Assembly (NCBI RefSeq): GCF_041248615.1
Contig: NZ_CP158426.1
Origin: Escherichia coli
GTDB lineage: Bacteria; Pseudomonadota; Gammaproteobacteria; Enterobacterales; Enterobacteriaceae
Strand: one strand, 5' to 3'
DNA length: 64,000 bases
Made by a program: the position numbers. Positions 1-6,000 of the stretch are shown piece by piece; position 1 is the stretch's first letter; every line of letters begins with the position of its first letter.

Positions 1-3000
1 GTGCGGCATGAAACAGGTTTGCGTCCTCGGTAACGGGCAGTTAGGCCGTATGCTGCGTCAGGCAGGCGAACCGTTAGGCATTGCTGTCTGGCCGGTCGGA
101 CTGGACGCTGAACCGGCGGCGGTGCCTTTTCAACAAAGCGTGATTACCGCTGAGATCGAACGCTGGCCGGAAACCGCATTAACCCGCGAACTGGCGCGCC
201 ATCCGGCCTTTGTGAACCGCGATGTATTCCCGATTATTGCTGACCGTCTGACTCAGAAGCAGCTTTTCGACAAGCTCCACCTGCCGACCGCACCGTGGCA
301 GTTACTTGCCGATCGCAGCGAGTGGACTGCGGTGTTTGATCGTTTAGGTGAGCTGGCGATTGTTAAGCGTCGCACTGGTGGCTATGACGGTCGCGGTCAA
401 TGGCGTTTACGCACCGATGAAACCGAACAGTTACCGGCAGAGTGTTACGGCGAATGTATTGTCGAGCAGGGCATTAACTTCTCTGGCGAAGTGTCGCTGG
501 TTGGCGCGCGCGGCTTTGATGGTAGCACCGTGTTTTATCCGCTGACGCATAACCTGCATCAGGACGGTATTTTGCGTACCAGCGTCGCTTTCCCGCAGGC
601 CAATGCGCAGCAGCAAGCGCAAGCCGAAGATATGCTGTCGGCGATTATGCAGGAGCTGGGCTATGTGGGCGTGATGGCGATGGAGTGTTTTGTCACCCCG
701 CAAGGTCTGCTGATCAACGAACTGGCTCCGCGTGTGCATAACAGTGGTCACTGGACGCAAAACGGTGCCAGCATCAGCCAGTTTGAGCTGCATCTGCGGG
801 CGATTACCGATCTGCCGTTACCGCAACCGGTAGTGAATAGTCCGTCGGTGATGATCAACCTGATTGGTAGCGATGTGAATTATGACTGGCTGAAATTGCC
901 GCTGGTGCATCTGCACTGGTACGACAAAGAAGTCCGTCCGGGGCGTAAAGTGGGGCATCTGAATTTAACCGACAGCGACACATCGCGTCTGACCGCGACG
1001 CTGGAAGCCTTAATCCCGCTGCTGCCGCCGGAGTATGCCAGCGGCGTGATGTGGGCGCAGAGTAAGTTCAGTTAACCTGGTGCTCATATTCTTACCGGAT
1101 TCGGCGTGAACGCCTTATCCGGCTTAACGCTCCGGTACCCATTGTAGGCCTGATAAGACGCGTCAAGCGTCGCATCAGGCACAAATGTCTAATGCCTACG
1201 ACTACAGCGAAATACAGGTCCCCGCTTCGCCCGCCAGCGTCTCTTCAATCCGCGATAACGCCCCAATCCACGCAGGTTTGCCACGGCTTCTGACATAGCC
1301 ACTCACCGCCGTTACCTTCGGCCCCATCGAACCATCGGCTTTGGCAAATGGCGCTAACTCATCCGGTGTGGCACGGCGAATGGCGCGTTGCTGCGGCGTT
1401 CCCCAGTTTTCATAAACCGCGTCAGCATCGGTGAGGATCACCAGCCCATCGGCGTTAATCTGCTCAGCGAGCAACGCAGCGGCGAGATCTTTATCAATCA
1501 CTGCTTCACTCCCTGCCCCGTCTTTCGTCACAGGCACACCGCCGCCGCCACTGCAAATCACCACATGCCCCTCTTTGAGCAACAACTCAATGGCTTCGCT
1601 GTCGAGAATTTTACGCGGTTGCGGAGACGCCACCACCCGGCGCAAATATTTACCATCACGTTTCATCTGCCAGCCATAAGCCGCTTCCAGTGCCTCTTGT
1701 TCTTCTGGCTGATAAACCGGACCGATAAACTTCTCTGGCTGCAAAAACGCCGGATCATCAGGCGAAACCTCAATGCGCGTCAGCACCGTCGTGACAGGCG
1801 GCATCTGCGGCTGTGCGCTCAAGCTGTGCGCTCAAGCTCTGCGCCAGCATATAGCCAATCATCCCCTGGCTTTCCGCTACCAGCACATCCAGCGGATACG
1901 GTTCTACCTCTTTCCACGCCAGATTCTGTAACGCCAGCAGCCCCACCTGCGGCCCGTTGCCGTGAACAATCGCCAGCCGATAAGAACGGGCCAGGCGCGT
2001 CAACGCGGGTACAGCACTGGCAATATTGCGATATTGATTTTCTGCCGTCAGCGCTTCGCCGCGCTGGAGTAAGGCGTTGCCCCCAAGAGCCACAACCAGT
2101 GTTTTCATGGTTTTCCTTGTAATAATTGTTGACCAAGCCAGAACCCCAGCAGCGTATCTGCCCCTGACGTATGCCCCAGCGCCAGCAGCGAATCAATCGC
2201 AACAGCGGTACGTTTCGGGCAACTCAGAGCATGGACAAAGTGCAGGAGTAGCGAGGCGAAATATCCTTGCGCGGCATAACGTAAATAACTGACGCTCACC
2301 GCTGTGGTAACGAGTTGAAGATTGTCGGAACAGGCAAAAAACTGGCGACCGGAGCGCGTATCTAAAGCGCCATAATACCAGGCCGCCAGCAGCATTCCGC
2401 TCAGCGTGTCATCATGACTCGGCGTTAATCCCGGACCTTTGCCCAGCCAGTGCCGCCAGTCGGTCTTCACGCCATTGAGCGCGGCCTGAAAACAGTGGCG
2501 AAACTGGCGTAATTCAGCAGGAAGCGGATCGCCTGCCGCCAACGCCAGTGGCCCGAAAAGCCCGGTTTCCTCCGCGCGTTGCATCCATGCAGCTGCAAGC
2601 GGTTGAGGATGCGCAGGCGGCGTAATACGCAGCAAACAATAACGCTGTGACTGTTTAACCGTGAAACGTCCGAGGCGAATCCCTTGTGCCACAACCTGCG
2701 GTTGTTCATTGCCGCATAATCCACCGCATAACGCATCGAATTGCGCGCGGCGAAGCACCCATCCTCCGGGGCCGAAACCACTACCCTGACGATGCAGTGT
2801 GAACAATTCACCGCTTTCCGTCATCAGGTTAATCGCCCGCCGCCACACGCCCGCTAACCGCCAGGACTGGCGATAATTCGGTGCACTACGGCTGGCAAGC
2901 AGAGGATGGATGATCGTCATTGTGCGTTCCTCAACCAATCCCCATGCTTTCAGCCAGTGCTTCCAGCGCCTGCTCAAAGCACGCCAGCGGTGCCCGCACG

Positions 3001-6000
3001 GTGCCTGCGCCAATCTGCCCGATCCCCGCCTCTTTATGGGCGATACCGGTATTGATGAGTGGCGTAATGCCGGTTTCTACCACGCGACGAATGTCCAGTC
3101 CCAGGCACGCGCCCTGAAAATCCCAGCTTGGGATCTGCAACTGCATATTGCGTTCAAGGAAGATTTCCGCCATCTCTTCAGATACCGCTCTGGCCGCTTC
3201 CATGCCACCCGCACCGACAAAGCGCGTTACGCCAGGCGCTGCGATCATCGCCGCTCCGCCAATACCAAAGGTTTCGGTAATCGCGCTGTCGCCCATATCC
3301 GGGTTCGCCTGCTCCTGCGAGAAGCCAGTGAAAAACAGACCTTGCGGAGTGTTTACAGGCGCAGTAAACCAGCGTTCACCCAGCCCGCTTACCCGAATCC
3401 CGAACATATTGCCGTTGCGGGTCATAGCCGTGACGATGCTGCCTGCGCGGATCATCGCACCAGCATCCATCGCCGCCTTGCAGTAAGCCATCGCGAGGTT
3501 AAGGAAGAACTGATCGGTCACGCTGAGGAAATCCATCACTTCGGCGATGCTCTGTTTATCATGATCAAGGCGAGCAATTTGTGGGGCCAGCGCACGCATT
3601 AACAGTGCTGAGGAAGCAATATTGCGTTGATGGAACTCATCGCCCATGGTAATGCCCTGCGCCATCATCGCGGTAAGATCGATACCGCGCTCCATGCGCC
3701 CCAGCGCCGCGCTTAATACTGGCATTAACACATCGCGCATCCAGCGATGGCGAGTCAGGACATCTTCGCCGTAAGCGCCAAAACGCATCACTTTGCCGAT
3801 ACCTTCGTTGAGGTTGCAGTACGCCCGGTTGCCGTCGGTCACGTTCTCGACCACCAGCATCGGCATACTGGCAGAAGTAATGCCGCCCATTGGCCCGACA
3901 GCATTCACATGGTGACAAGGAATGAAGTTCACTTTCCCCTGCTCCAGTATTGCCAGCGCCTGCGCTTCATCTTTCGCCCAGCCTTCGAACAGACATGCGC
4001 CCACGCACGCCCCTTTCATGGGTCCGGTCATCTCCTGCCAGCGCATTGGCGGCCCGGCGTGAAGCAGTGTTTTGCCCTCGTTTAGTTCGCTGATAAGTGA
4101 AGAAGCCGGTTGCACATCCAGCCAGTGTGGACGAGCACGACGAATTTGTTCGATAACCGCAGCATTGGCTTGCGCCACTGATGTAAACATGGGAACCCCT
4201 TATTGCAAACGTTCTAATAAACGAGCCAGTTTTTTATTGCCGCCGGCGACTGGCGACCATTGGTAATGCACAACCGGTTTGCTGGCGCTTTGTAGCTCCA
4301 GCGCAAAGTTGCGTAATCCGATGTTAATCACGGCGACGTTTTCCAGTAATGACGGTGTGTGTTGCTGTGTGGCAGGCGAGAGCGGATGAATTAACGCTGC
4401 CGCCAGCAAGGTGGCTTCCGGTAGCGAACTCACGACCGCAATCCCCGCATCTTCCAGCGTGGCGATTTGCTGCGAGCGGCATTGCGGGTCACTTTCGGTA
4501 CCTGTCACCGTGGCAATGGCGTACAGCGGTTGGCTGTCTGAACGCGCGGCACAGGCTTTTTGCCAGGCGCTCACCAGCGAGGCGGCAGGATCGGCGGTCG
4601 CGCCGAAGCCAATCACGACATCAAGTAGCAATACGCGCACTGACGGTTTAGCGCCGAGATCGGCAATTAACTGGTTGCGTAAGGTTGGGTCGATCATCGG
4701 ATGGGGACGCCCGACGGTGTAGAAATCATCGCCCAGGTCGAGGATCTGATGTCCGTCGGCGTCGAGCATCATGCCATGTTGATGGGTATCGTCGGCTTCC
4801 ACGCCAAGGTGTCCGGCAAGTAATCCCGCCGCTTCAGCAGCCAGCGTACCGCCGGTATACAAACCGCAAATAAATCCGCTGCTGACAGGTGCTATTGCGT
4901 TACGTCGCGCCGTGACGCGTGAAAGCAGGCAAGCCAGGCGTGCGGCCTCATCAAGCGAGGAGGCAAACCAGACATTCTCGTCGCGGGCCACCGCCGGGGT
5001 ATAACCTAAAAACAGCGCCACCGTCGGTTTGCCAGTTGCTTTCATGGCATTAACAATTTTCAGACGCACAGCTTCGGCAGGTGGTTTTGAAACAAATGCC
5101 AGCACTTCGCTTTTCTCGTCGGCGCTTAACATTTCCAGCGCCGTTAGCGCACTGATGCCGCCCACTTCACGGCTGAGGTCGCGCCCGCCAAGACCAATCG
5201 CGTGAGTAATTCCCTCACCTGCCAGCGCAATCTGCGAACACAGTTCCTGAATCCCGGTACCGGAAGCGCCAATGACGCCAATGTTGCCTTCCGGTATCAC
5301 GTTAGCAAAAGCCAGCGGCGTGCCGGCAATCATCGACGTACCGCAGTCCGGCCCCATCACCAGCAAGCCTTTTTCCCGCGCGCGGGTTTTAAGTTGGATT
5401 TCATCTTCCAGCGTGACGTTATCAGAGAACATCATCACGTTGAGGTTGCGATCCAGCGCCTGATTCGCCAGCTCCGCCGCATACTCGCCAGCCACTGAAA
5501 TCAGCGCCAGACTGGCGTCGGGTAATTTCTGACAGGCACTGTCCCAGCGACGCACCTGCGTCAACGCCTGGCTGCTGCCTGACCCCTGCGCCAGTTGTTT
5601 TAGCGCCTCTTCAAGCTGTTGCATAATCGCCTGCGCGATCCCCGCATCCGCCGCTTCGCTACGAATTGCCACGCAAATATCGTTCGGCGTGGCGTTATTA
5701 AAATCGTCATGCCAGAAACCTGTCGTCTCTAATAACGCTTTATTGGCGGGCGTACCCATCATTACAGAAACATCATCAACATTTTCTGATTCGCTTAGTT
5801 TTCGTGAAATAATCATTAAACTGACCGAATCCTGAAAACACCCTTTTTTAATAAAGGCGTGGATCATAACAACTCCTTAAAAATTGCACCCATGGCAATT
5901 GCACGAGCAGTGTTAATGTGGCGATTACGGTATCGATGACAACGAGTAAATAAGGTGATAAATATCACACAGGGATTATTAACAAAAGAATTCAAATAAC

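Follow-up and report, generated by a model that had tools for sequence, protein, structure and literature searches.

The window analysed here, a 64,000-nucleotide stretch of the Escherichia coli contig NZ_CP158426.1, very probably carries in ylbE (allG) an ordinary functional gene, the second of the allFGHK operon, in a strain identical here to NRZ14408, the frameshift once recorded for the K-12 gene being in all likelihood a record error or stock discrepancy. Nearly all E. coli, the current MG1655 reference included, have this known gene of allantoin breakdown in intact form. The locus is composed of the following features:

1202..2108, minus strand: ybcF (allK), gene for the catabolic carbamate kinase; frameshifted pseudogene, 907 nt instead of the normal 894 nt
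1813..1838 (ybcF positions 271-296), minus strand: 13-bp tandem duplication, AGCTTGAGCGCAC twice, located by alignment
2105..2920, minus strand: ylbF (allH), 271-aa CDS, starting as in K-12 from the ATG at 2920
2931..4190 (stop codon included), minus strand: ylbE (allG), intact CDS for the predicted AllG subunit of oxamic transcarbamylase
3933..3939 (ylbE positions 252-258), minus strand: site of the old K-12 frameshift, GGGGAAA (Gly85-Lys86) in the window
4200..5867, minus strand: fdrA (allF), 555-aa CDS, first gene of the allFGHK operon
5868..6183, no strand assigned: divergent allD-fdrA intergenic region between the ORFs 4200..5867 (minus) and 6184..7233 (plus)

The ORF listing of the window gave, at 2931..4190 on the minus strand, a single uninterrupted reading frame of 419 aa with an ATG start and zero internal stops, as the preliminary description had stated. 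The encoded protein matched the Pfam family PF06545 (AllG, formerly DUF1116) over the whole profile (1-215 of 215), with a score of 326.3 bits (cut-off, 27) and an E value of 1e-97, and PDB entry 3CLQ (421 aa) matched its residues 2-414 with an E value of 3.3e-112. The NCBIfam scan returned no model for YlbE or YlbF, and FdrA alone was named. On the nucleotide level, ylbE aligned with its MG1655 counterpart gap-free at 97.7% identity; the 29 nucleotide differences included 25 synonymous and three non-synonymous codon changes, and the two proteins were identical at 416 of 419 residues (99.3%), with no indels and with shared start and stop. The fdrA stop codon precedes the gene by 9 nt, and the ATG of ylbF follows it after 10 nt. 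Because of the full-length matches to Pfam and 3CLQ, the mainly synonymous differences and these operon-like flanks, ylbE is a genuine gene and a chance ORF is excluded.

The genes ybcF, ylbF, ylbE and fdrA are arranged in this order on the minus strand, divergent from allD, allC and allE on the plus strand, so that the window holds the allF-allG-allH(-allK) context expected of an allG gene. FdrA contains the Pfam domains CoA_binding and Ligase_CoA (succinyl-CoA-synthetase-alpha-like), scored 1036 bits with the NCBIfam model NF004760 (FdrA) and aligned gap-free with K-12. YlbF matched Pfam PF11392 (AllH) with an E value of 3.6e-29, its gene was gap-free against K-12 ylbF over positions 1-816, and it overlaps ybcF by 4 nt; a longer, TTG-started version of this ORF (to 3013) was discarded as a listing artefact, the K-12 start being the ATG at 2920. 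It was reported that the four allFGHK genes are co-transcribed (PMC9843812) and that the operon is regulated by AllS and ArcA (PMC12535856). The intergenic region 5868..6183 is presumed to be the promoter and regulatory region of the allF operon. The two weak sigma-70-like matches found there on the minus strand (6143..6115 and 6108..6081) are at chance level, and the promoter and terminator scan of positions 1000-6300 gave matches no more numerous than in shuffled sequence.

The preliminary description had set the intact ylbE of this strain against a frameshifted pseudogene in K-12. This contrast is not borne out by the MG1655 reference now in use, NC_000913.3, in which ylbE (b4572) is annotated as an intact CDS of 1260 nt and 419 aa, and the alignment confirmed that the K-12 gene is intact and of equal length. 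As a statement about annotation, the pseudogene does stand for U00096.2 and NC_007779.1. The latter, the W3110 record, still marks ylbE as 'frameshifted' with 1259 nt, and the pre-2013 MG1655 record U00096.2 carried it as a pseudogene (PMC5460176, PMC5210515); U00096.2, which was superseded by U00096.3 in 2013, corresponded to no actual single isolate (EcoCyc, PMC5210515). The W3110-record gene differs from that of MG1655 version 3 in two respects only, a silent G114A and the loss of one G from a G5 run. As revealed by alignment, gene positions 252-258 read GGGGGAA (Gly85-Glu86) in MG1655 version 3 and GGGGAA in the W3110 record, which is one base short, with G4 for G5 at positions 252-256, and whose translation ends after codon 86. 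In the window, GGGGAAA is read in frame and the G4 frameshift allele is absent.

Since the rows of a similarity table do not reveal pseudogene status (in them, the pseudogene of W3110 looks like an ordinary CDS), allele-specific 41-mers and the length of the match span in a spread genome sample were used as substitutes. The nucleotide similarity search found ylbE at a coverage of at least 80% in 5,417 of 5,426 complete genomes, with three further genomes below 80% and six without a match. In the evenly spread sample, all 59 full-length rows spanned exactly 1260 nt, with a net length change in 0/59. The 41-mer search detected the W3110-type frameshift allele in 4 of the 5,426 genomes, none of them the source genome of the window; the window allele GGGGAAA is distinct from it and likewise rare (about 8-9 genomes). 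The window ylbE is 100% identical to that of NRZ14408 and that of isolate 362.

Independent resequencing of K-12 stocks points in the same direction. A laboratory W3110 was found to carry both 'corrections' relative to AP009048, and hence an intact ylbE (PMC5979011), and intact versions were also reported for BW30270 and its derivatives (PMC4404585) and for a laboratory MG1655 (PMC5460176). NCM3722 is without the frameshift (PMC3045373), and of the two corrections at least the SNP is seen in a W3110 derivative (PMC5405962). In our comparison, ylbE of the K-12 derivatives ER1709, JM83, DH5a and AML003 was 100% identical to the intact version 3 gene. On the basis of secondary citations and allele counts, the 'K-12 pseudogene' is read as an error of one base, or a discrepancy between stocks, in the G5 run, which persisted in U00096.2 and is still present in the W3110 record; the contrast with K-12 stems from outdated database records.

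The lesion claimed for ybcF, on the other hand, was confirmed in the sequence record. The 13-bp tandem duplication splits the gene into an N-terminal ORF of 112 aa (1770..2108) and a C-terminal ORF of 206 aa (1202..1822), both of which match Pfam AA_kinase, and the one uninterrupted CDS of about 297 aa with an AA_kinase domain (PF00696) that defines AllK is lost. The duplication appears as a 13-nt gap in the alignments of the window with both K-12 and isolate 362, is bordered by the imperfect direct repeat GCGCA(G/C)AGC, and was present in one of 5,419 genomes, that of NRZ14408, assembly GCF_900093485.1, in whose record NZ_LT599825.1 RefSeq labels ybcF as 'frameshifted'. Isolate 362 is the closest relative; over 9.19 kb just two SNPs and the ybcF duplication separate it from the present strain. 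The duplication frameshifting allK is taken to be very recent and probably arose by replication slippage. Further decay of the allantoin regulon was sought in the remaining K-12 CDS found here; since all 18 of these, which run from selU to purK, were gap-free and without internal stops, cluster-wide decay was rejected, and the ybcF duplication is the only lesion in the allantoin regulon of this strain.

These results bear on two other accounts of the K-12 frameshift. A single early stock, such as the W3110 used for clone libraries, could have carried the frameshift as a genuine mutation; from this stock-private pseudogene the sequence would then have entered the W3110 record as well as that of MG1655 version 2. 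Two linked differences, the silent G114A and the 1-bp deletion, are somewhat unusual for a random base-calling error, and the mismatch of U00096.2 with any single isolate noted by EcoCyc (PMC5210515) would also fit. However, the independently resequenced W3110 has both corrections relative to AP009048 (PMC5979011), at least the SNP is corrected in the W3110 derivative (PMC5405962), and homopolymers such as this G5 run are classic sites of miscalls. Moreover, the other three genomes bearing the allele are near the version 2 length and match at the same coordinate (547813/547814) as the W3110 record, which suggests that they are reference-guided consensus sequences. A stock mutation is thus very unlikely. 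Less probable still is the first reading, that K-12 had truly decayed at ylbE and the present strain at ybcF, the fdrA-ylbE-ylbF-ybcF cluster being lost piecemeal by lineage. It draws on the 'frameshifted' label in the W3110 RefSeq record, on the listing of ylbE as a pseudogene in U00096.2 (PMC5460176) and on the frameshifted ybcF of the window; furthermore, selection on ybcF may be weak, because its deletion affects allantoin degradation little (PMC9843812). For MG1655, this reading is already refuted by the intact 419-aa gene of NC_000913.3. The frameshift allele occurs in just 4 of 5,426 genomes, ylbE is intact in diverse derivatives of K-12 as well as in the W3110 and MG1655 stocks that were resequenced, and deletion of K-12 allG has a phenotype while the gene yields an active 46-kDa subunit (PMC11326118). 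With the ybcF lesion confined to one of 5,419 genomes and the remaining regulon gap-free, the supposed decay at various points of the cluster comes down to this single duplication, and decay of ylbE in K-12 is unsupported.

The duplication itself might be an artefact of assembly or consensus calling in the NRZ14408 record, which would leave allFGHK entirely intact. Its occurrence in one record of 5,419 and its absence from the near-identical isolate 362 are in favour of this explanation, which we consider unlikely: an exact 13-bp tandem copy with a short direct repeat resembles replication slippage, unlike the homopolymer-length errors of sequencing platforms, and the remaining 9-kb region shows no further indels. 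The fuller proposal takes the allK duplication for a genuine loss that is very recent and potentially reversible, with allFGH kept under purifying selection by a lineage of clinical type; it, too, is considered unlikely. If the loss were genuine, the value of the oxamate branch would lie in nitrogen release and in carbamoyl phosphate for arginine and pyrimidine synthesis, not in AllK-dependent ATP formation. Confined to a single genome, the duplication marks the strain NRZ14408 in a minor way.

The function of AllG was established in 2024, when AllFGH was identified as a three-protein oxamic transcarbamylase of anaerobic allantoin degradation: deletion of K-12 allG abolished oxamate production, and purified K-12 AllF-AllG-AllH showed oxamic transcarbamylase activity (PMC11326118). 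YbcF was characterized as a carbamate kinase (PMC9843812). By analogy with the K-12 experiments, AllG of the window would act in the anaerobic oxamate branch of allantoin breakdown, forming oxamic transcarbamylase with AllF and AllH; the three subunits would jointly catalyse oxalurate + Pi <-> oxamate + carbamoyl phosphate. AllK would normally use the carbamoyl phosphate with ADP to yield ATP, CO2 and NH3; upon its loss, oxamate production should stay intact and the ATP-yielding step encoded at this locus would be gone. Being the norm in E. coli, the intact allG has little biological weight. The W3110 RefSeq record, which still marks a functional gene as 'frameshifted', calls for caution about stale annotation. 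Metabolic-engineering studies have made insertions at the ylbE locus in W3110 and MG1655 (PMC12175537, PMC11731478), one of them terming its insertion loci 'pseudogenes or non-essential genes', and with an insertion at ylbE the oxamate branch of allantoin breakdown is probably lost.

Compared with known systems, the window gene corresponds to MG1655 YlbE/AllG (b4572, YP_009029994.1, UniProt P77129; EC 2.1.3.5) in length, Pfam family and placement between fdrA and ylbF. It differs from K-12 AllG by the substitutions E86K, H214S and Y344F, and this variant (K86, S214, F344) is predicted to have the K-12 AllG function, judging from 99.3% protein identity and the conserved operon context. Precisely where the frameshift of the old record sits, E86K converts the G5 run of K-12 to G4A3. 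The pseudogene of the W3110 record (NC_007779.1/AP009048) and of MG1655 U00096.2 is the same gene at the same locus, whereas the window ylbE carries neither change of the W3110 record (the G4 frameshift and A114) and reads through. The window ybcF is collinear with K-12 YbcF/AllK (b0521), with the same overlap with the ylbF stop and the same Pfam AA_kinase domain, and departs from it in that its frame shifts through the 13-bp duplication after gene position 270. Finally, PDB 3CLQ, a structural-genomics entry for an uncharacterized protein without functional annotation, is a full-length homologue of the window AllG by sequence comparison, through which the fold of the AllG family appears to be already solved.

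The ylbE (allG) gene was found as a single ATG-started ORF of 419 aa without internal stop at 2931..4190 on the minus strand, as the preliminary description had stated, and the raw window sequence concurs with the ORF listing at this position. The features of this part of the allFGHK operon are as follows.

4200..5867, minus strand: fdrA (allF), 555-aa ORF; ylbE begins 9 nt downstream
2931..4190, minus strand: ylbE (allG), 419-aa ORF, Pfam PF06545
Start at 2920, minus strand: ylbF (allH), 10 nt downstream of the ylbE ORF

The start of ybcF (allK) is overlapped by ylbF by 4 nt. 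The ylbE protein matched Pfam PF06545 (DUF1116 in the past, now 'Oxamate carbamoyltransferase subunit AllG') along its entire profile, with E = 1e-97; FdrA matched Ligase_CoA and CoA_binding, YlbF matched PF11392 (AllH), and both ybcF fragments matched AA_kinase. The NCBIfam scan named FdrA (NF004760, 1036 bits) and returned no model for YlbE or YlbF. A 421-aa homologue of YlbE, PDB 3CLQ (E 3e-112), has a solved structure without annotation.

The preliminary description had set this intact frame against a frameshifted K-12 pseudogene, and had named an intact K-12 gene of the same length as what would refute it. This contrast was not borne out, because ylbE of MG1655 (NC_000913.3; b4572, YP_009029994.1) is an ordinary, intact CDS of 1260 nt, which aligned with the window gene with zero gaps and 29 nt differences (97.7% identity). 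The differing codons comprise 25 synonymous and three non-synonymous ones (E86K, H214S and Y344F, from MG1655 to the window), which at the sequence level is a signature of purifying selection. Across 5,426 complete E. coli genomes, ylbE was found in 5,420, with coverage of at least 80% in 5,417, and in a sample of 60 rows spread evenly down the similarity ranking all 59 full-length matches spanned exactly 1260 nt. Intact ylbE is the norm in E. coli, and the window ylbE is an already known, ordinary gene. Its allele is uncommon, with only three genomes at 99% identity or more. At 3933..3939 (minus strand) it reads GGGGAAA (K86) where K-12 has GGGGGAA, a rare change present in about 8-9 of the 5,426 genomes; that it falls at the site of the old K-12 miscall is a coincidence, worth noting and no more. 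The sole visibly truncated ylbE in the sample was that of AR_0085 (NZ_CP029741.1), the last of the 60 rows (35% coverage) and one of few genomes with a genuine truncation of the gene. Its match at 3803131..3803569 holds gene positions 822-1260 alone and overlaps a feature annotated fdrA, which suggests an internal deletion fusing fdrA with ylbE.

The pseudogene in question does exist in the W3110 record (NC_007779.1), where ylbE, at 1582..2840 of the stretch examined, is still labelled a 1259-nt 'frameshifted' pseudogene, but not in the current NC_000913.3. Alignment of the two revealed exactly two differences: G114A, which is silent (E38), and the loss of one G from the run of five at gene positions 252-256, whereupon translation ends after codon 86. 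Resequencing against the old references lists the same two sites (547,694 A>G and 547,831 +G). Both variants were reported in lab MG1655 (PMC5460176), in BW30270 and its derivatives (PMC4404585) and in lab W3110 relative to AP009048 (PMC5979011), and PMC4404585 refers to Freddolino et al. (2012) on the presence of both in common stocks of MG1655; for a W3110 derivative the SNP alone was listed (PMC5405962). The ylbE of NCM3722 was described as intact, 'restored' (PMC3045373). According to EcoCyc, U00096.3 superseded U00096.2 in 2013, the latter matching no actual isolate (PMC5210515).

A 41-mer centred on the W3110-type run of four Gs was found in only 4 of the 5,426 complete genomes, namely W3110, CIT, LIM and CAR. 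The last three are presumably reference-guided consensus sequences, since their record lengths and match coordinates lie near those of the old reference. The K-12 derivatives ER1709, JM83, DH5a and AML003 were 100% identical to the intact MG1655 gene. Because the four-G allele is so rare and the K-12 derivatives are intact, the most fitting reading of the K-12 'pseudogene' is an error at the record level or a stock discrepancy at a homopolymer rather than lineage decay, and we give only a small probability to one historical K-12 stock having truly had the frameshift. Resequenced lab W3110 strains have the intact gene, and the outdated label in the W3110 record coincides with the choice of ylbE by metabolic engineers as a site for insertions (PMC12175537, PMC11731478). 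Useful by-products are the continued mislabelling of a functional gene in that record and this engineering use of ylbE.

At ybcF, window 1150..2150 (minus strand) was aligned with K-12 as well as with isolate 362 (NZ_OW967178.1), the closest relative. The sole indel was an exact 13-bp tandem duplication, AGCTTGAGCGCAC occurring twice at gene positions 271-296 (window 1813..1838, minus strand), which frameshifts this carbamate kinase gene. An imperfect direct repeat, GCGCA(G/C)AGC, flanks the duplication, which is therefore consistent with replication slippage. A 141-nt probe spanning both copies matched at 99% or more in only one of 5,419 complete E. coli genomes: isolate NRZ14408 (NZ_LT599825.1), whose ybcF is flagged 'frameshifted' by RefSeq. 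Window 1..6400 is identical to this record, and the window is accordingly assigned to NRZ14408. In nearly all other genomes the 13-nt gap lowered the identity to about 80-95%; one more genome, outside the best-ranked rows, lay at 95-99% and may have a different allele at this site. Isolate 362 has an intact ybcF without the duplication, and over 9.19 kb differs from the window by two SNPs (window 8323 and 2650) and the duplication, nothing else. Given a single carrier among 5,419 genomes and an intact gene in so near a relative, the lesion appears very recent and strain-private. It is possibly an assembly artefact, although the form of the duplication speaks against this. The allK lesion is thereby precisely described for a single strain.

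The preliminary description had combined this lesion with the ylbE contrast into decay at different points of the cluster. Comparison of 20 K-12 genes with the window showed 19 to be collinear (selU, allS, allA, allR, gcl, hyi, glxR, allW, allB, ybbY, glxK, allE, allC and allD, along with fdrA, ylbE, ylbF, ybcF and purK), and no gaps or internal stops were found in these outside ybcF. A cluster decay pattern was rejected, as ybcF alone is lesioned. The observation was correct, and its interpretation, which rested on outdated annotation, was supported only in part.

The remaining K-12 gene, ylbG, had no window counterpart by blastn; in MG1655 the pseudogenes ylbH, ybbD and ylbI sit beside it. 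In the window, about 22320..23030 adjoins selU (21225..22319), and an FtsX-type permease ORF (23032..25446) comes next. With ylbG absent and this ORF after selU, the locus is unlike that of K-12. Elsewhere in the window lie the following ORFs.

39249..60023, minus strand: giant ORF, 6,924 aa; BapA_N prefix, numerous Ig-like repeats (Big_13, Big_6), FG-GAP repeats, C-terminal RTX nonapeptide
60132..61487, minus strand: TolC-like outer-membrane protein
37083..39245, minus strand: ABC exporter
35911..37086, minus strand: HlyD-type membrane-fusion protein

As a group, these look like a giant adhesin exported by a type I secretion system, with its own export genes.

In K-12, a single transcript covers fdrA-ylbE-ylbF-ybcF, and the product of ybcF acts as a catabolic carbamate kinase (PMC9843812). 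Ureidoglycolate is oxidized to oxalurate by AllD, and carbamoyl phosphate yields ATP via AllK. Deletion of allF, allG or allH abolishes oxamate production from allantoin, and purified AllF-AllG-AllH converts oxamate and carbamoyl phosphate into oxalurate, an oxamic transcarbamylase activity (PMC11326118). Sequence identity and synteny suggest that the window ylbE carries the AllG function. AllFGH would then be functional in this strain, and oxamate should therefore still be made. The kinase encoded at the locus would no longer turn carbamoyl phosphate into ATP, and carbamoyl phosphate would presumably enter pyrimidine and arginine synthesis, the fate proposed for the K-12 ybcF deletion, whose effect is slight (PMC9843812).
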